Below, piece after piece: positions 1 through 9,385 of a DNA stretch of 64,000 nt. The stretch comes from a phage. Where the stretch lies: sequence record PX915678.1; one strand, 5' to 3'. The first letter of the stretch is position 1; each line of letters starts with the position of its first letter. The notes under the pieces are model-generated. The model was not told where the DNA came from, did not search any database, and saw only the letters and a list, made by a program, of their open reading frames with translations. The translations under genes and the position numbers were made by a program.

Positions 1-2055
1 TCCTTGAACGAACTTGTAAGGCATGTTTGTAATATCTATGCAAGACGCAATAATTCCAAGAGATGATTCTACTTTTTGTTTAACATTTGATGAAACAAAT
101 GATGCAAAGTCAACTCTGTCTTCTATTTCAATATCACCTGTCATTGCAACTACTTCACCAGTTTCCATTAGACGATCACCGTCATAAATTACTGATTCGG
201 TGAGTTCTTCCGTAGTCATAACTTCAGCTTGAATAAGCTTGTTGTTAGTTTTAGCTGTTCCATCATTGTAAGATGCATCGGTTATTTTATTAACTTTGAC
301 CATTAATCCACGTGGTAAAATGACTTCCATTTCATTTGAAGGCGCTAAACTTCCACCTGGTAAAACAACGTTGACTTTATCAGCCCCAGTAATAACCCAT
401 CCAATTCCAACTAAATTATCGCTAGAATTAACAAGTCCTTCATCGTTTTTATCGATAGAAATGTTTAGACGCTTTTCGTCTGGTAAAACACCCACAGCTG
501 AATCAGTCATCCAAGTACCAAAAATGTTTGGATATAATGATGTTGATACAAAATTTCTAAAATAAAAAACTCGATTTTTTACCAATGCTTCATATATTGA
601 AGGTAACATTCGCTGTGAACGATATAAAGTAATACCTTTTGGCAGTCGATCACCATTTTTAAAGGCTGAATCTAAATTATCGATGGCTTGTTCTATTTCT
701 GGTGCTGTTAAAATACTTGTACGTTCATCTGGATTATATAATCCCAAAAGAGCATTATTCATGTCTACATATCCTGAACCTACGTATTCACGAATTCCAC
801 GTTTTTGTGCCGGTGTGTATTTAGACGGATCTTTATTTTCGACTATAGAATGCAATGACCATCCAACGGTAAGAGCATATCCACGTAATTCTCTTCGAAT
901 AATCTTTGTTTTTATTGCATTCCAAGAATTTTGTACTAACTCATTCGCAGCATCTTGATTTAAATGCGAATGCTTGTTAATATTTCTTTCTAACCAAGCA
1001 CCTTTATATTTTTCTAAAGTATCATCGACTATAGAAGCAATAGTTTCTAAAGTTTTTATTGAAGTAATAGATTCTTTTCGTAATCTTTCTAAAGCTTTAT
1101 TTTTTATTTCTGCATTAACATCAGATTCTTTATCTTCAGGAATTATAGAAGCTTCTCTGAATGCCATTCCAGCTGTAACACTATTAAGAGCATTCTCTAA
1201 TGCAAATCCTGAAGTAGAAATAACAGTTAATTCATTAGCATCAGAAATTAAAGGCGCGTCAGCGGGTTTATTTAATTCTGCTGCTGAAGCCTCAAATTTT
1301 TGAAACATTGGTGTTTCAAATCTGGAAGATTCTAACGATTGACTTTGTGCAATTGCTCTACGGGAAATTTTAACTTTAACGATTACAGCTTGGTCAGAAC
1401 GTTTATCGTTTTCTTGTGCAATAGATGCTGCAATTGCCTCATTTTTAGTTACTTGAGCTCCGGTATCTTTATTGATATAAACATCACCGACTTTCGATTC
1501 AACTTTAGTAAAGAGCTCGGTACTAATTTCCGGAACTCCTGGAATGTCTTCTAGTGATACATTTTTGCGATGTATAAGAATATATGCATACTTTTTATCG
1601 TAATCCCAGAGTTCCTTAAGAAGGACGTATCTGCCACCTGAACGACTACGGATAAGTCTATCAGCAATAAGTTGAATTTGACGAGCTTGACCAGCAGTTT
1701 TAGACTTAAGAATACGGAGCATGCAGGCATCAATTTTATACTGACGCATCGTCTGCATCGCAACAGTAAAAACTGAATTGATGTAATTAATTGGGCTTGG
1801 ACCGAGACCTTTTAATTTAGCAATTGAACCTTTGGCAGTTAATGTAAAAGGAACAATATGCATCATTTTATCGCCCATCTTTAAATCGCGATTAGTATCA
1901 CCTCCAGATGTATAGGTACATAAACGAAAGCCTGGCTGTTCAATTGCGTCATCAACATGAACTGAAAAAATTTGTGGTATTTTCTTCTTTGGATTTAAGT
2001 TTGTAATCGGAAGAGTAGTATCTTCGTCAAATAATTCTGTAATGAGTTCCATCAT
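1..2055 (-). CDS. alt: ADP-ribosyltransferase Alt, partial (C-terminal end lies beyond left edge)
   Basis: Minus-strand frame open from window edge to ATG ATG at 2055/2052; N-terminus MMELITELFDED...; >=685 codons; late promoter just upstream. Confidence 0.8.
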   Translation of the reverse strand, partial: MMELITELFDEDTTLPITNLNPKKKIPQIFSVHVDDAIEQPGFRLCTYTSGGDTNRDLKMGDKMMHIVPFTLTAKGSIAKLKGLGPSPINYINSVFTVAMQTMRQYKIDACMLRILKSKTAGQARQIQLIADRLIRSRSGGRYVLLKELWDYDKKYAYILIHRKNVSLEDIPGVPEISTELFTKVESKVGDVYINKDTGAQVTKNEAIAASIAQENDKRSDQAVIVKVKISRRAIAQSQSLESSRFETPMFQKFEASAAELNKPADAPLISDANELTVISTSGFALENALNSVTAGMAFREASIIPEDKESDVNAEIKNKALERLRKESITSIKTLETIASIVDDTLEKYKGAWLERNINKHSHLNQDAANELVQNSWNAIKTKIIRRELRGYALTVGWSLHSIVENKDPSKYTPAQKRGIREYVGSGYVDMNNALLGLYNPDERTSILTAPEIEQAIDNLDSAFKNGDRLPKGITLYRSQRMLPSIYEALVKNRVFYFRNFVSTSLYPNIFGTWMTDSAVGVLPDEKRLNISIDKNDEGLVNSSDNLVGIGWVITGADKVNVVLPGGSLAPSNEMEVILPRGLMVKVNKITDASYNDGTAKTNNKLIQAEVMTTEELTESVIYDGDRLMETGEVVAMTGDIEIEDRVDFASFVSSNVKQKVESSLGIIASCIDITNMPYKFVQG

Positions 2056-2293: not shown

Positions 2294-3750
2294 AGACCAG
2301 TTACCTCATGAAAATCACCAAATACATCCTCGAATGTATTAGCTTTAGTTTTATCTTCACGTAAACGAATCGCAATCGGAAGAAATAATTTAACGTAATC
2401 AGTGCGGCCGTCAGATTTTAACCAACCATTGCATTCACATTCTAGAATTTTTCCAATATAATAATTTTGGTTTTCCATAATGCGAGTACGGTCAAGTTCA
2501 TGCGATTTTACACCGGCTTTATCTTTTAAGCCTGAACCAGCATTTACTTTAATTTTTCCACACTCTGATTCAAGAATAAATCCACCCGCTTTAGTTGGGT
2601 CTTTACGGTGAGGATAAATTCCTACAATTTTTAAATCAACATCAATTACTTCTTTAAATTTATAGAGATTTTTTGAACGAGAATTTTCCCATAATCCATC
2701 AATATTTTTGAGAATAATACCTTCAAGACCTTGGTCAATATACTTTTTATAAATTACCTTAGCTTCATCTAGGTTATTTACTACCTGGTTTTCAATTAAA
2801 ATTACTTTATCATATCCTGATGTCATTTGTTCTAGTTTAGAAAAACGTACATCATATTTTAAACGAAACGCCGGAAGACCGTATATTTCTACCAATGGGA
2901 CATAATCCCAGACCTGAAACTTCATGCATTTGGCTTCTTTTTCTGAAATAGTTCCCTTTAAAGATTTATTGGCGATTCCATTAGAAGCAGTACGTGATTC
3001 AGCTACTTCGGCAAACTCTTTGACTTTACTATTTTCAGGAGTATCAAAAAGAAAATCTAGGCCTTCTGGCTCCTTTTCAACTTGCTCATGGTATACCAAT
3101 TCGCCATCGATTAAAACACCTTCTGGATGAATCTGGCGGGCTTCAGCGGTCATTTTGATTAACTCTTCCTTAAGAAGATCTAATCCTAGATATTCATTAC
3201 CAGCTCGTGATAAAAGACGAACATCATCTAATTCATCGCCTCGGACTTCAGCAAAACACCGAGCTCCATCTGCTTTTAACTGTGCAAAGGCTGGAAATTT
3301 GATATTCTTACTAATGCCTTTTTCATCATAAGAACTTGCCAGCATTTGAGGTTGTTCAGGAATTAAACCTGGCCAAACTTTATTTGCAATAGATACTGAA
3401 GCACCGCATTCAAGATCTCGCATCATCACTCGACGCAAAACTTCAACATCATCCTTTTTACCGTCGGTGATATATCCAGTTAATTCCTCAATTGCCGCAT
3501 TTCCAGTCAATTTCCGAGTAGCTAACGTGAATTCAATGAAGTCAAGCATATCGGTAATAGTCAGCATTCCAAAACTCTGGGTAGCAATACCAGGTTTAGG
3601 CCATTTCTTGATATAATACTGTAACCCACGAGAATAAGTCAGACGATATACTCGTTTAAGCAATTCATTATCTTTATTCTTTTCAAGAATTGCTTGCTTC
3701 TGCTTAGTTGATCCAATAGATGCTATTTCATTCAGAATTTTAAGAATCAT
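2290..3750 (-). CDS. 30: ATP-dependent DNA ligase
   Basis: 486 aa; KxDG adenylation motif (LKADGARCFAEV); N-terminus MILKILNEIASIGSTKQKQAILEKNKDNELLKRVYRLTYSRGL as recalled for T4 ligase. Confidence 0.95.
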   Translation of the reverse strand: MILKILNEIASIGSTKQKQAILEKNKDNELLKRVYRLTYSRGLQYYIKKWPKPGIATQSFGMLTITDMLDFIEFTLATRKLTGNAAIEELTGYITDGKKDDVEVLRRVMMRDLECGASVSIANKVWPGLIPEQPQMLASSYDEKGISKNIKFPAFAQLKADGARCFAEVRGDELDDVRLLSRAGNEYLGLDLLKEELIKMTAEARQIHPEGVLIDGELVYHEQVEKEPEGLDFLFDTPENSKVKEFAEVAESRTASNGIANKSLKGTISEKEAKCMKFQVWDYVPLVEIYGLPAFRLKYDVRFSKLEQMTSGYDKVILIENQVVNNLDEAKVIYKKYIDQGLEGIILKNIDGLWENSRSKNLYKFKEVIDVDLKIVGIYPHRKDPTKAGGFILESECGKIKVNAGSGLKDKAGVKSHELDRTRIMENQNYYIGKILECECNGWLKSDGRTDYVKLFLPIAIRLREDKTKANTFEDVFGDFHEVTGL

Positions 3751-6455: not shown

Positions 6456-6788
6456 TTATTTTACTACTTTCCAGTGCTGCATGTCAAGTTTACCAACTTT
6501 TTTCATCTTCTCAATTAAGCGTTCAGCACGTTGGCGAGCTGTAACATAATACCATTCACCCAATTCATTTTGTTCAATTTTTCCAACGATTACTGTATTC
6601 AATTCATAAATCCAACCAGTAAAGAAATTATGAACTTGAATTGTAAAGGTGAAATCTGTTCCCATACCTTCTGTTGTTTCTACTTCAATAATATCACCTT
6701 CAACTGCCATTAAGAACCACATAGTTTCATCATATTTACCATTGAAGCATTTAGTTTTAACTGTAGCGTTCAGATTAATCGTTTTCAT
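6456..6788 (-). CDS. hypothetical protein (110 aa)
   Basis: ORF in array. Confidence 0.5.
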   Translation of the reverse strand: MKTINLNATVKTKCFNGKYDETMWFLMAVEGDIIEVETTEGMGTDFTFTIQVHNFFTGWIYELNTVIVGKIEQNELGEWYYVTARQRAERLIEKMKKVGKLDMQHWKVVK

Positions 6789-6845: not shown

Positions 6846-6874
6846 AACTTTGTGCAATCTTTGGAAAATAAAAA

Positions 6875-6894
6875 AGGACTCCCGAAGGAGTCCT
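6875..6894 (-). terminator. C(UUCG)G stem-loop plus U-run, intrinsic terminator
   Basis: aggactcc-cgaa-ggagtcct preceded on plus strand by aaaataaaaa; same hairpin sequence recurs at 60167..60188. Confidence 0.55.
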
Positions 6895-6898
6895 CAAC

Positions 6899-7075
6899 TT
6901 ATGCTTTCTGCTTACCAAAACGAGAAGCATCATCTCGAAGAACCGCACGTGCTCGGCGCATGATCTTCTCAACAGTTTGATTGATACGAGAGTTCGACCC
7001 ACGCTTGTAACCAGCGCGTTTAGAATCACCAACTTTCTTTTCAACTGCTTTCTTTGCTTTAGCTTGTTTTGCCAT
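6899..7075 (-). CDS. small basic protein (58 aa; 30.9 position)
   Basis: MAKQAKAKKAVEKK...; start taken at ATG 7075; track start at 7117 also in frame. Confidence 0.45.
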   Translation of the reverse strand: MAKQAKAKKAVEKKVGDSKRAGYKRGSNSRINQTVEKIMRRARAVLRDDASRFGKQKA

Positions 7076-7117
7076 TATAAATTCTCTTTTAAATGAAAAT
7101 GCAGGACTTATTGGCAT

Positions 7118-7470
7118 TGCCTGCGCAAGCCCTCAAGGGGAACATAGGTTTTGTATATTTACCGACAGGATAACCATAAACCCGTCATCATACTTATAAC
7201 TCTTATCTGTTGCACACCGTTAGCTTAAAGGTTCCGGGTTCGATTTCTCGAGGATAAGATATATACTGATGGATATATAGGCCTTGAGGCGTACTCCCGA
7301 TTAGCCATCACCTCGGGGTAGCATGCACTTGCCGCTATAAGAATAACATTCAAGAGGTACACCGTAAAACTGCCGGGGTCTTAAAACTATAATGATTCGC
7401 AAATCATTAATCAGACAGTTCGACGGCTCCTCGATTTTAGCTCACACTAAGGCAGTGAATCTCCAATAAA
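7118..7470. other. ~350 bp ORF-free region with several inverted repeats
   Basis: No ORF above ~27 codons on either strand; hairpins e.g. aatgatt-cgcaa-aatcatt (7391..7409), gccttgaggc; unusual gap for this genome. Confidence 0.4.
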
Positions 7471-7719
7471 TTACTTCAGTGTTACCACAAAGTGACGAAC
7501 TGCTTTTCGTGCAGCAGAAGCCAAAGGCTTAGCATATTTAAGTTCATCTTTTTCCTGAAGCTCAGCAGCTAATGCAGTTTGAGCAGGATTCAGATGTTTG
7601 AAATAACGCAGGATTTCAAGAGCTTCGGCTTCAACATCAATAGATGCGCCATAGTTTTCGTGACCATTATTCCATGCGTTTCGTTGCAGTTCAAGAGCGT
7701 GTTGTAATTGTTTAATCAT
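7471..7719 (-). CDS. rIII: lysis-inhibition accessory protein rIII
   Basis: 82 aa, position between the 30.x array and gene 31 as in T4. Confidence 0.8.
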   Translation of the reverse strand: MIKQLQHALELQRNAWNNGHENYGASIDVEAEALEILRYFKHLNPAQTALAAELQEKDELKYAKPLASAARKAVRHFVVTLK

Positions 7720-7866: not shown

Positions 7867-8202
7867 TCACTTATAAAGACACGGAATAGCTTTATAGTGA
7901 CAGGTAACGAATTTTTGTTTAATTTCTTTTGGCTGCTTAAGACCCAGAGCTACAAAAGGATGTGGAACGTTTCGAATTTGACCAACTGGAAGAGAAGTCA
8001 AATCACCAACTTCACAGAAACCTTCAGGAACATCAGGACCAACAGAGTGAACTACACACAGTTCAGGAACTTCACCTTGAACACGTTTACCGATAATAAG
8101 TCCTGATTCTGTAACTTCTTCATCACCGGCTTGTGCAGGTTCAGAAACTAAAATAACATATTCACCGACAGCACGAATTGGTAGCTGTTGTACTTCAGAC
8201 AT
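7867..8202 (-). CDS. 31: co-chaperonin gp31 (GroES analogue)
   Basis: [40 protein letters not shown]...; 111 aa from second ATG. Confidence 0.9.
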
Positions 8203-8258
8203 CATTTTTCCTTTTTGTTAACAGATGAATTAATAATAACAAATAATTCTTAAAGCAT

Positions 8259-8567: not shown

Positions 8568-8804
8568 TTATTTACCTATTACAGTTTTAATATGGGTTGT
8601 TCCACGTTCTTTAAGAGTGGAAAGCAATTTTTGGCATTTTTCTAAATCAGATTTCCAACTATACGGCCTATCAATACTAGTCCAATCAGTTTTATAATAC
8701 TGTTTCCATTTAGAGAAAAAATATTTCTTATACTCTACAGCAAATGAAATGTTCTCGTTAGAATAAGAACTAATTGCTGTGAGCTGTACCAAACGAAATT
8801 TCAT
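8568..8804 (-). CDS. hypothetical protein (78 aa; 31.2 position)
   Basis: ORF; start overlaps cd stop by 1 nt. Confidence 0.5.
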   Translation of the reverse strand: MKFRLVQLTAISSYSNENISFAVEYKKYFFSKWKQYYKTDWTSIDRPYSWKSDLEKCQKLLSTLKERGTTHIKTVIGK

Positions 8805-9385
8805 TATTCACCACAGAATTCGTTGATATTTTCCCAGTTTAACTTATTCAAGTTTTTCTTAGGAACATTAAACACTTCAATACCCGCATTTCGCAGAATA
8901 TCATCCCAGCCAGGTTTATTTTTATCGTATGTTTCACAATAAACCAGCTTTTTAATTCCAGATTGAGCTATGGCTTTTGCACAATCCGGACAAGGAGAAA
9001 GCGTTACATACATAGTAGCACCTTCAATTGAAGAACCGTTTCGTGCAGCAAACAAAATTGCATTTAGTTCAGCATGAATTTCATTTTTAGATGACCATTC
9101 AGAGTGAGCGCTACGGTGTTCTTTCGCCAAGACAAAACGATCAGTTGAACCAAATGATACACATTCAGACTTATGACCTTGAATGATAGTGTGTTTAGGC
9201 TTATTCAACAACCAGCCTTGTTCAGCAGCATAATCGCAGCAGTTCACACCACCTGCAGGTGAACCATTATATCCGGTAGAAATAATACGTCCATTCTTTT
9301 CAATTACTGCTCCTACCTTCCAGGAGCAACATTTTGATTCTTGTGATACTAAATATGCAATTTGAAGTACTGTACTCGCTTTCAT
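8804..9385 (-). CDS. cd: dCMP deaminase
   Basis: 193 aa; zinc-binding deaminase motifs HAELNAI and PCPDC. Confidence 0.9.
   Translation of the reverse strand: MKASTVLQIAYLVSQESKCCSWKVGAVIEKNGRIISTGYNGSPAGGVNCCDYAAEQGWLLNKPKHTIIQGHKSECVSFGSTDRFVLAKEHRSAHSEWSSKNEIHAELNAILFAARNGSSIEGATMYVTLSPCPDCAKAIAQSGIKKLVYCETYDKNKPGWDDILRNAGIEVFNVPKKNLNKLNWENINEFCGE

Follow-up and report, generated by a model that had tools for sequence, protein, structure and literature searches.

The genes rIII and 30.9 of this phage are separated by a long, ORF-poor stretch of DNA, and the question is what this stretch encodes. The window is the whole stretch of phage DNA that was analysed (64 kb, PX915678.1). A sequence-only reading had delimited an ORF-free region at 7118-7470 and had offered a structured RNA, a regulatory leader or a decayed gene as explanations. 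The ORF-poor stretch was real, but its left limit was misplaced. In T4 and its relatives, 30.9 has 58 aa, and as the annotated gene starts at 7075, the intergenic region starts at 7076 and comprises 395 nt (7076-7470). That no ORF exceeded about 27 codons was true for ATG starts only, as GTG and TTG starts gave ORFs of 45 and 33 aa. The genes and reading frames concerned were the following.

7471-7719, minus strand: rIII, 82 aa, the upstream gene (homologues annotated as rIII lysis inhibition accessory protein)
7301-7402, minus strand: TTG ORF, 33 aa (bacterial start codons allowed)
7225-7362, minus strand: GTG ORF, 45 aa (bacterial start codons allowed)
7073-7075, minus strand: AUG of 30.9
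6899-7075, minus strand: gene 30.9, 58 aa, very basic, the downstream gene (T4 annotates gp30.9 with 177 nt)
6874-6895: intrinsic terminator after 30.9

The product of gene 30.9 matched phrog_1427 (2e-31), and no Pfam or PDB relative was found for it. There was no promoter-like or terminator-like site within 7076-7470. Predicted folds packed the whole 395-nt gap with helices. As the single-sequence folding energies were not unusual, inverted repeats alone prove nothing here: the z value was -2.8 for the whole region, -1.7 for its upstream part, 0.0 for its downstream part and -0.9 for the central 149 nt, whose calculated stability was no better than that of shuffled sequence.

The alignment to T4 that had been proposed exposed the core of the gap as an insertion that is absent from T4. 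This core is called element E in the following. The proposal of a structured RNA was right for these central 149 nt, where it has strong covariation support. Comparative folding and covariance-model scans, also proposed beforehand, gave a conserved fold but no match to an Rfam family. The covariance model for element E scored 168.5 bits (E-value 2e-36), with a single copy in the 64-kb window. Element E lacks a promoter of its own: neither a sigma-70 consensus nor an exact match to the MotA box or the T4 late box was found. Its parts are given below in 5' to 3' order of the minus strand.

7193-7341, minus strand: element E, 149 nt, a P1-closed four-way junction with eight helices (insertion relative to T4, and covariation)
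7334-7341, minus strand: P1 5' strand CUUAUAGC, pairing with GUUAUAAG at 7193-7200
7280-7333, minus strand: 5' arm (P2, J2/3, P3, J3/2)
7331-7333 with 7280-7282, minus strand: P2, GGC with GCC, invariant apart from one U.G
7323-7330, minus strand: J2/3, AAGUGCAU
7289-7322, minus strand: P3, a long hairpin with a bulged A and an AA bulge; 9 of 10 pairs compensatory in the main helix and 2 of 3 in the distal extension
7283-7288, minus strand: J3/2, CUCAAG
7260-7279, minus strand: P4, hairpin UAUAUAU-CCAUCA-GUAUAUA; 3 of 7 pairs compensatory (AU/UA/GC, CG/UA)
7201-7259, minus strand: 3' domain, a three-way junction (P5, P6, P7)
7253-7259 with 7201-7207, minus strand: P5; 6 of 7 pairs compensatory
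7240-7251, minus strand: P6, a GAAA-capped hairpin; 4 of 4 pairs compensatory
7235-7239 with 7214-7219, minus strand: P7; 1 of 5 pairs compensatory
7220-7234, minus strand: P7 loop GAACCUUUAAGCUAA, 15 nt, largely conserved, its ends GGA.CC and GCUAA invariant
7208-7213, minus strand: J7/5, GCAACA

The flanks that form P1 pair in a constant register. Every lineage except the CF1 type has a run of 4-11 bp there, and the CF1 type has 2 bp followed by a mismatch. At least ten different sequence pairs occupied this one register across the lineages, and the centroid fold contained the same P1 stem. The unpaired parts fell into two kinds. The tracts AAGNGCAU, GGANCC, GCUAA and GCAAC, about 25 nt in total, were fixed and are located in the internal loop that is conserved in the P2-P3 arm, in the P7 loop and in the junction. 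In P3, P4 and P6, the distal loops varied freely, the loop sequence of P4 included, and the centre of the P7 loop takes a hairpin insertion in phage EcS1.

Among 29 distinct copies, which represent only about ten independent lineages (effective sequence number of the model 0.97; two alignments were fitted to the model), 98.5% of the pair cells were paired and 28 of 42 pairs were compensatory. The observed values were reached by none of 500 shuffles on four of five measures and by 2 of 500 on the remaining one, the count of further pair types. Slid controls had at most 7 compensatory pairs against the 28 observed. RNAalifold on a plain MAFFT alignment gave 42 pairs, of which 17 were compensatory. 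P2 (apart from its one U.G) and most of P7 are predicted helices that never varied among the copies; the change in P7, from CCCG/CGG to CCUG/CAG, occurred in Slopekvirus and Pseudotevenvirus copies. A screen of unpaired columns yielded one credible extra cross-loop pair (alignment columns 10 and 65), which changed from U-A to G.U in 9 copies. Other tertiary-pair candidates of this screen were rejected as confounded by a single clade. The helices held 61 G·U cells and 0 A·C cells. As G·U occurs and A·C never does, the minus strand is the functional strand. The comparative evidence for the fold is far beyond chance.

With this fold, the sequence clues that had first drawn attention to the region can be placed. 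The repeat aatgatt/aatcatt was present at 7391-7408, but its loop is cgca (4 nt) and not cgcaa. It extends to an 8-bp stem (7390-7409) and belongs to a separate upstream module common to T4, not to element E. The sequence ccctcaagggg was located at 7130-7140. At 7281-7290, gccttgaggc was found too, but it forms no hairpin in the supported fold, where it runs from the end of P3 through J3/2 into the 3' strand of P2. The tRNA-like box GGTTCGATT exists at 7237-7245, but the likeness is a coincidence: the box lies antisense to two helices, P6 and P7, on the strand that is not functional, and ARAGORN found no tRNA there.

None of the 4227 families of Rfam 15 matched the window at gathering level. 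At an E-value of ≤10, there was still no match in 7118-7470, whether the query was 1 kb or 166 nt long. Divergent copies (JC221 and Citrofr4-type loci) gave noise only against Rfam, with no match above a tenth of significance or covering element E. The full-text literature that was searched held no description of element E; bulk catalogues of unnamed candidate viral RNAs exist (e.g. PMC10690425), and the search covered text rather than the lists within them. None of the GenBank records inspected annotated it as an RNA. Element E matches no catalogued RNA family and is a new structured RNA.

Several specific identities were rejected. A tRNA or tRNA remnant was dropped given 0 tRNA or tmRNA genes by ARAGORN in the 64 kb, no Rfam tRNA-clan match at E ≤10 and the antisense position of the T-loop-like box. 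The covariance model of element E (R1) found nothing at E ≤10 in the tRNA/rnaC/rnaD locus of T4, where no likeness was seen by eye either, and homology with rnaC/rnaD was rejected on the negative model search. Mimicry of a host RNA had been considered because of an apparent likeness of GGGAGUACGCCUCAAGG to helix 27 of 16S rRNA. This likeness did not hold up: blastn of element E against all complete E. coli genomes gave no match at E ≤10, and GGGAGUACGCCUCAAGG is the 3' strand of P3. An S-box (SAM-I) identity was without covariance-model support. The short words presumably shared with the S-box consensus are CUUAUC...GAUAAG, ACCCGG, GCUAA and GCAAC.

Element E was found in 407 phage records at 408 places and is hence a single-copy element. 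Carriers include vB_EcoM_Lutter, SHFML-11 and Klebsiella phages of the genus Jiaodavirus. It was confined to phages of Enterobacterales and always had the same direction as the surrounding genes. Three contexts were distinguished. In seven genera, it lies in the gap between rIII and 30.9. In Pseudotevenvirus and Slopekvirus, it follows uvsY.-2 and precedes further non-coding modules and a terminator, without a downstream gene on that strand. In PKM.Lu.22.1, a phage of the Grimontviridae (not T4-like), it lies in a 3'UTR before a terminator; its neighbours there encode an ECF-type sigma factor and an uncharacterised protein. In the sibling PKM.Hi.22.6, which is 98% identical, precisely the block enclosed by P1 is missing, as it is in T4: the base of P1 marks the exact point where element E is gained or lost. 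The two mapped junctions (T4/window and PKM.Hi/PKM.Lu) had no target-site duplications. Moreover, element E often begins 5-25 nt past a stop codon. The sequence after P1 was wholly different between lineages, and the distance to the start of 30.9 ranged from 41 to 156 nt over the lineages (~120 nt in the window).

The identity of element E was 82-94% between five of the six other genera compared and 69% for EcS1. Genes 31, rIII and 30.9 had 61-77% identity in the same comparison, meaning that element E is better conserved than its flanking genes. This high identity between genera could result from recent transfer as well as from purifying selection. A blastn search of 5,426 complete E. coli genomes gave no match at E ≤10, and no match was found in plasmids. 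An exact-pattern scan of 185,579 bacterial genomes (GTDB) gave chance matches only, and scans of the same type in IMG/VR and JGI metagenomes gave just contigs of enterobacterial T4-like phages and chance matches. A link to the T4 replication origin oriE was dropped, as a review places oriE near repEA and not at uvsW/uvsY.-2 (PMC3016281). The origin oriF lies in uvsY, upstream of the second locus, and nothing connects element E to it.

The remainder of the gap consists of further modules.

7439-7466, minus strand: M-like segment UUGGAGAUUCACUGCCUUAGUGUGAGCU, which follows immediately on the stop codon of rIII
7354-7432, minus strand: module U, predicted as a long, irregular hairpin (GAGG...CCUC) with the cap UAAUGAUU-UGCG-AAUCAUUA (7390-7409); MFE and centroid folds agree (z = -1.7)
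7139-7192, minus strand: module D, hairpin GACGGG/CCUGUC with a loop complementary to the A-rich tail, common to T4
7076-7143, minus strand: proximal leader of 30.9 (predicted folds)
about 7124-7143, minus strand: conserved hairpin GUUCCCCUUGAGGGCUUGCG of the proximal leader
7101-7124, minus strand: stem GCAGG...CCUGC of the proximal leader
7082-7099, minus strand: hairpin UUUUC-AUUUAAAA-GAGAA, which pairs the Shine-Dalgarno GAG in the predicted fold

Module U is identical in T4 but for one base. In JC221 and PKM.Lu.22.1, element E is flanked by the mini-hairpin GGUGAGUCGCUACCUUAGUGCG, with which the M-like segment agrees by eye at about 17 of 24 positions, a weak likeness. The mini-hairpin flanking element E in some phages resembles, again by eye, the 5' hairpin of rnaD. 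The complementarity in module D is lineage-specific (UUAGUAGUU/AACUACUAA, UUGGUAGU/ACUACUAA and UUGUGAG/CUCACAA), and module D may form a pseudoknot; the T4-type pairing comprises 4-6 bp only, and the shuffle test was crude. The GUACCC..GGGGCUUG hairpin of the leader is found again at many related loci, and in other genera different self-complementary sequences take the place of the variable stem (GGGAGC/GCUCCC, GGGAAC/GUUCCC, GAACUGG/CCAGUUC). The idea of a regulatory leader may thus apply to the part of the gap beside 30.9, given hairpins conserved by eye and a predicted fold that pairs the Shine-Dalgarno sequence.

Whether element E itself is part of such a leader, as a riboswitch aptamer or another cis-acting element that sets the translation, termination or stability of the 30.9 message, is a separate matter. 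The compact P1-closed fold with its invariant junction core is aptamer-like, and in seven genera it stands upstream of 30.9 in a structured leader. The window fold, a single-sequence prediction, pairs the Shine-Dalgarno sequence, and by eye a similar hairpin is possible in CF1-type leaders. However, no expression platform is conserved after P1, and the spacing to 30.9 differs almost fourfold. Pseudotevenvirus, Slopekvirus and the Grimontviridae phage have no same-strand gene before the terminator, T4 expresses the same leader without the element, and no Rfam riboswitch matched even at E ≤10. We regard a cis-acting role as unlikely. It appears slightly less likely again that element E cleaves itself as a ribozyme or is recognised as a module by a host RNase, and so separates the rIII and 30.9 messages or defines 3' ends. 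The position shortly after stop codons and among other discrete modules, like a multi-RNA precursor, would suit such a role. Self-cleaving ribozymes, which are common in phage genomes, share the compact form closed by a terminal helix, the invariant junction nucleotides and the variable peripheral stems. Yet hammerhead, twister, twister-sister, hairpin, HDV-like, pistol, hatchet, glmS and VS ribozymes were unmatched at E ≤10, no candidate cleavage site could be named, and the functional strand has neither a 3' CCA nor a tRNA-like T-loop.

Untranslated RNA invites Rho-dependent termination, and a passive shield against Rho loading or 3' exonucleases, without a specific partner, would explain a helix-packed gap and an element that lies between stop codons and terminators in untranslated RNA. 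But a shield needs neither fixed unpaired tracts nor 82-94% identity between most genera, the calculated stability of element E does not exceed that of shuffled sequence, and T4 manages without it; we consider this reading improbable. For an element acting as DNA (a miniature transposon, a recombination hotspot or a replication or packaging signal, with an incidental RNA fold), one can cite the precise presence or absence, the bounding inverted terminal sequences and the transfer across phage families. It is nevertheless very improbable. There is one copy per genome, the two mapped junctions are free of target-site duplications, and the terminal repeats differ between lineages yet stay complementary, so the termini behave as an RNA helix and not as a transposase site. 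The covariation of the internal helices includes G.U and never A.C, which means that one strand is read as RNA. Hardly credible is a small unannotated protein gene or a decayed gene, the last of the earlier proposals, in spite of the 45-aa GTG ORF and of the many GenBank records (e.g. of Klebsiella phages) with a CDS annotated over element E, several as a 'hypothetical protein' of 45-50 aa. No reading frame was open across 27 distinct copies. Stops occurred in every frame on both strands in most copies (1-4 per frame), and the open frame shifted between lineages. The indels among copies were 1, 2, 4 and 7 nt long and not multiples of three, the helices changed by compensating substitutions and there was no Pfam match. 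Element E carries the marks of neither a protein-coding gene nor a pseudogene.

The reading that we prefer, with a probability of roughly 0.55, is that of a horizontally mobile RNA domain which acts autonomously, travels on early or middle transcripts and binds a partner. Element E would ride a polycistronic early or middle transcript through gene 31, rIII and 30.9 as a module in its own right rather than as a regulator of its neighbours. The peripheral helices would be a scaffold that fixes the invariant core in a defined three-dimensional shape, and this core would bind a specific partner, be it a small molecule or a protein of the host or the phage. Element E may first be trimmed to a stable small RNA, just as the tRNAs of T4 and its stable RNAs rnaC and rnaD are cut out of longer precursors. 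Both the trimming and an action in trans are what we infer from sequence comparison. In the window, a cis role is possible as well, because the element lies inside a leader ~120 nt upstream of the start of 30.9.

The cassette-like spread and the presence or absence among near-identical phages suggest an accessory function, such as host takeover or counter-defence, rather than a part of the core machinery; it is only this distribution pattern that points to such a role. A bolder version is possible but doubtful. Element E might found a new RNA class, a mobile cassette with an invariant core that is catalytic or that binds a metabolite, an immune signal or a host factor. It might give phages of Enterobacterales an accessory advantage, for example as a decoy or sponge against host defence, and belong to a set of interchangeable RNA modules (M, U, D, A, C) that fill fixed non-coding slots of T4-like genomes.

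No virulent phages have been studied better than T4 and its relatives. Many of the relatives with element E are in development for therapy against E. coli, Shigella, Klebsiella and Enterobacter. Element E probably escaped study because T4 lacks it. The most conserved stretch of this neighbourhood is an RNA, and many GenBank entries mislabel it as a hypothetical protein. Should this RNA have a host or immune component as its partner, the known accessory and counter-defence functions of phages, nearly all of them proteins, would gain an RNA-based member. Should the RNA prove to be a ribozyme or an aptamer, it would be a new fold of tractable size (149 nt). Natural knock-out controls exist in T4 versus the window phage and in PKM.Hi.22.6 versus PKM.Lu.22.1. 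The long 'empty' intergenic regions of such phages appear to be mosaics of exchangeable structured RNA modules, which changes how these regions are to be annotated and engineered.

Among known systems, rnaC and rnaD of T4 come to mind first, non-coding T-even phage RNAs of 119-139 nt that, like element E, are structured and small, co-transcribed with their neighbours and not known to be essential. We know of no function established for them after 50 years. Element E differs in its genomic location and in lacking the tRNA-like T-arm of rnaC, and its processing is putative. With phage tRNAs, it shares the four-way junction, the closing terminal helix, the polycistronic transcripts and the nature of an accessory cassette that comes and goes, but it is twice the size of a tRNA, has the wrong arm lengths and lacks CCA. 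Riboswitch aptamers such as the four-way junction of SAM-I also have a P1-closed junction, invariant joining nucleotides and variable distal loops. In element E, however, the words shared with SAM-I stand in another order, there is no expression platform and the position is not consistently upstream of a gene.

GOLLD, ROOL and manA/wcaG are likewise phage-associated RNAs that were found by covariation and whose function is unknown or partly known; manA and wcaG occur in T4-like cyanophages (PMC2864571). Element E differs from all of these in its hosts (Enterobacterales) and had no covariance-model match to any of the families, and it is much smaller than GOLLD or ROOL. PeSLs are a last comparison. 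According to Arbiol et al. 2010, they reportedly combine a promoter with a stem-loop, act at the level of DNA and transcription and occur in multiple copies in T4-type genomes. Both PeSLs and element E are short non-coding intergenic cassettes of T4-type phages that are tied to modular shuffling. Element E has no promoter consensus and, unlike a PeSL, is a single-copy, multi-helix RNA of 149 nt.

The window phage is T4-like (Tequatrovirus), and all genes in this part of the window are carried on the minus strand:

6456-6788, minus strand: gene 30.8 (Pfam Phage_30_8)
6874-6895: intrinsic terminator after 30.9
6899-7075, minus strand: gene 30.9 (58 aa per T4 annotation)
7471-7719, minus strand: rIII
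7867-8205, minus strand: gene 31
8804-9385, minus strand: cd

The only signals nearby were a sigma-70-like promoter for 30.8 and the terminator. No promoter-like or terminator-like signal was found in the rIII/30.9 gap, and no exact T4 late box or MotA box. Sub-threshold Rfam matches at 6860-6943 (minus strand) to Atu_C8 (E = 4e-4, 31 bits with a threshold of 50 bits) and Phe_leader aligned mainly over the terminator hairpin 3' of 30.9 and were taken to be not meaningful.

The sequence-only reading had placed an ORF-free structured region at 7118-7470. Its left boundary followed a mechanical 72-aa ORF for 30.9 (6899-7117, minus strand) that starts at an in-frame upstream ATG at 7117. In T4 and relatives, 30.9 is annotated with 58 aa (start at 7075, GAG 8 nt upstream), and the boundary should be 7076. 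The absence of ORFs over 27 codons did not hold with GTG/TTG starts, which give a 45-aa ORF (7225-7362, minus strand) and a 33-aa ORF (7301-7402, minus strand). The inverted repeats and the GGTTCGATT box were located correctly, give or take a base. Single-sequence folding energies were unremarkable (z of 0.0 to -1.7 for parts, -2.8 for the whole region), so the repeats alone show nothing.

BLAST matched the region in 994 of 50,697 phage records, with full coverage in only 180. T4 covered 56% of it, in two pieces, and the proposed alignment to T4 exposed a block of ~150 nt in the window that T4 is without. In a Klebsiella Jiaodavirus, this block (E) is ~94% identical to that of the window, with flanks that are otherwise unalignable. 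Between the window and other genera, the identity of E was 82-94% (EcS1: 69%), compared with 61-77% for genes 31, rIII and 30.9. In most genus comparisons, the most conserved sequence of the neighbourhood was therefore a non-coding one. E lies between rIII and 30.9 in a subset of Tequatrovirus and in Jiaodavirus, Moonvirus, Karamvirus, Muldoonvirus, Kanagawavirus and Kagamiyamavirus; neither T4 nor Gelderlandvirus STML-198 has it.

When 22 distinct copies were aligned with MAFFT, RNAalifold predicted a fold of 42 base pairs, and 17 of these showed compensatory changes. A covariance model was built from this alignment and used to gather more copies. With 29 distinct sequences, in alignments fitted to the model and spanning only about ten independent lineages, 98.5% of pair cells were standard and 28 of the 42 pairs showed changes on both sides. 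In the shuffle test, 0 of 500 shuffles reached the observed value on four of five measures, and 2 of 500 did so for further pair types. When partners were slid by 1-3 columns, 25-42% of cells were paired, with at most 7 compensatory pairs. The compensations are also plain in the raw sequences: CCCGA/UCGGG to CUCUA/UAGAG; UAUAU/AUAUA to UAUAC/GUAUA to UAUUC/GAAUA; UCGA-GAAA-UCGA to CCGA/UCGG to CUGA/UCAG; CUUAUC/GAUAAG to UUCGUG/CACGAA; and CCCG/CGG to CCUG/CAG. The covariation support comes from the other helices and the variable part of P7, since P2 and the rest of P7 do not change.

The flanks of the core vary in look yet are mutually complementary, always at the same register. The closing helix that results, P1, has 4-11 bp in every lineage except the CF1 type (2 bp, then a mismatch), with at least 10 different sequence pairs. 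This delimits the element in the window:

7193-7341, minus strand: E, 149 nt; P1, a P2-P3 arm with an 8-nt/6-nt internal loop, a P4 hairpin, and a P5 arm ending in P6 and P7

As P1, P2, P4 and P5 follow each other without linker nucleotides, they form a four-way junction. For the window sequence taken alone, the centroid fold agrees with the model. Position 10 (J2/3) and position 65 (J3/2) covary across the internal loop (U-A to G·U in nine copies, with one exception). The unpaired tracts AAGNGCAU, GGANCC, GCUAA and GCAAC are fixed. Variable sequence or insertions occur in the distal loops of P3, P4 and P6 and in the middle of the P7 loop. Among the paired columns, G·U occurred in 61 cells and A·C in none; hence, the helices exist on the minus strand only, the transcribed strand of the neighbouring genes. 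The data show a compact, closed RNA fold specific to one strand, in which the core is invariant and the peripheral loops are free to vary. E is almost certainly a functional structured RNA on the minus strand, as one of the earlier suggestions had it.

E is not a tRNA (ARAGORN finds none in the window). The T-loop-like box noticed earlier is the antisense of P6 and P7. Nor is it related to T4 rnaC or rnaD. The covariance-model scan against Rfam 15 (4227 families) gave no match even at E ≤ 10 with a 166-nt query. Database scans beyond BLAST used exact words only; E was not found in E. coli genomes or plasmids, and an 18-mer scan of 185,579 bacterial and archaeal genomes gave chance matches only. 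GenBank records of many Klebsiella phages carry a 'hypothetical protein' CDS of 45-50 aa directly over E (e.g. 2506-2655, minus strand, in the Jiaodavirus locus L003). As the frame is not conserved, these are probably mis-annotations.

E is single-copy in the window and was found at 408 places in 407 phage records. The hosts of these phages are Escherichia, Shigella, Klebsiella, Enterobacter, Yersinia, Salmonella, Citrobacter, Serratia, Raoultella, Erwinia, Kosakonia and Edwardsiella. Of the Escherichia phage records that match the region, only about one in four (130 of 568) has E, which is therefore dispensable. In Pseudotevenvirus, Slopekvirus and Yersinia phage JC221, divergent copies (model scores of 83-102 bits) occupy a second locus, after uvsY.-2 and ahead of a terminator, convergent with uvsW.1. 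A third context is the 3'UTR ahead of a terminator in the non-T4-like 76-kb Grimontviridae phage PKM.Lu.22.1 (132 bits), and E has thus crossed a family boundary. The 98%-identical sibling PKM.Hi.22.6 is without exactly the P1-bounded block. Together with the T4 comparison, this makes at least two cases in which near-identical genomes differ by the gain or loss of E as an exact unit.

The other parts of the rIII/30.9 region are common to T4:

7439-7466, minus strand: upstream segment directly after the rIII stop
7354-7432, minus strand: long upstream hairpin, capped by the aatgatt/aatcatt stem noted earlier
7139-7192, minus strand: module D, a hairpin with a loop complementary to the following A-rich tail; shared by T4
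about 7124-7143, minus strand: recurring hairpin GU(A/U)CCC-NNNN-GGG(G)CUUG
7101-7124, minus strand: variable stem
7082-7099, minus strand: hairpin UUUUC-AUUUAAAA-GAGAA, pairing the Shine-Dalgarno GAG of 30.9; in the window and T4

The sequences by which the loop of module D complements its tail differ by lineage, over 9, 8 and 7 bp in three of them, and in the T4 type the complementarity is weak; the module is a candidate H-type pseudoknot within the leader of 30.9. A hairpin comparable to that at the Shine-Dalgarno sequence, UCUCC..GGAAGA, is possible in leaders of the CF1 and STML-198 types. This predicted pairing suggests translational control of 30.9, a small basic protein. The 30.9-proximal part could well regulate 30.9 as its leader; the regulatory leader proposed earlier is partly apt for this part, which is distinct from E.

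The recurring hairpin is present in both the rIII/30.9 and uvsY.-2/uvsW.1 regions of many genera. It opens several different non-coding modules (comparison loci L003, L004, L006, L047-L053 and L008) and may be a punctuation, processing or protein-binding signal. The gap after uvsY.-2 (L008 of JC221, 790-1560, minus strand; L047-L053) is a mosaic of interchangeable conserved non-coding modules with a shared strong terminator at its end; in JC221, ~700 nt of it are without a convincing ORF. Module A is carried by RB16 and JC221, module C by Matisse, Cronuts, JC221, mtp5 and phiEap-3, and another module by RB16, Citrof4 and GAP161. None of the modules of this slot matches Rfam. Module C has 5 compensatory pairs among only 4 sequences. 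T4, with only 55 bp between uvsW and uvsY.-2 (L069, 2442-2496), has no room for such modules and lacks E at both loci where relatives have it, which probably explains why such RNAs were overlooked. By eye, a mini-hairpin, GGUGA(G/U)U(C/U)GCUACC..A(A)GUGCR, flanks E in JC221 (L008, about 1150-1180, minus strand) and in the Grimontviridae phages (L055, 1348-1375, plus strand; L070), of which even the sibling without E has it, and precedes E in Jiaodavirus (L003). It resembles the 5' hairpin of T4 rnaD, CCGGGUCGCUACCGGUAAGUCG (L046, about 3140-3165, minus strand).

E has no promoter of its own, always shares the orientation of its neighbours, and comes and goes as a cassette. We propose that the gene 31-rIII-30.9 transcript includes E and that E acts there as an autonomous domain, whose helices would fix the invariant nucleotides in one particular shape for binding a specific partner. 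It might be trimmed beforehand to a stable RNA of about 150 nt, by analogy with the T4 tRNAs and stable RNAs. We give this explanation as a whole a probability of roughly 55%. The distribution pattern of E would fit an accessory host-takeover or counter-defence function.

That E is instead a cis leader or riboswitch is unlikely: lineages have unrelated sequence after P1, 30.9 lies anywhere from 41 to 156 nt away, three lineages are without a downstream gene and T4 makes use of this leader while lacking E. A ribozyme or processing module is slightly less probable again, and a passive shield against nuclease or Rho ranks a little below that. An element acting at the DNA level is very improbable. 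Least credible is a coding remnant, or the decayed gene considered earlier: most copies have stop codons in every frame on both strands, the longest frame differs by lineage, indels of 1, 2, 4 and 7 nt occur and a Pfam search found nothing.

No description of E was found by full-text literature search; E may already be present, unnamed, in a bulk catalogue of candidate RNAs such as that of PMC10690425. In every membership test run, E fell outside the known family. On sequence and structure, we consider it a new class of RNA. In architecture, E is like multi-helix aptamers, and its behaviour is most like that of T4's own stable RNAs and phage tRNA cassettes.
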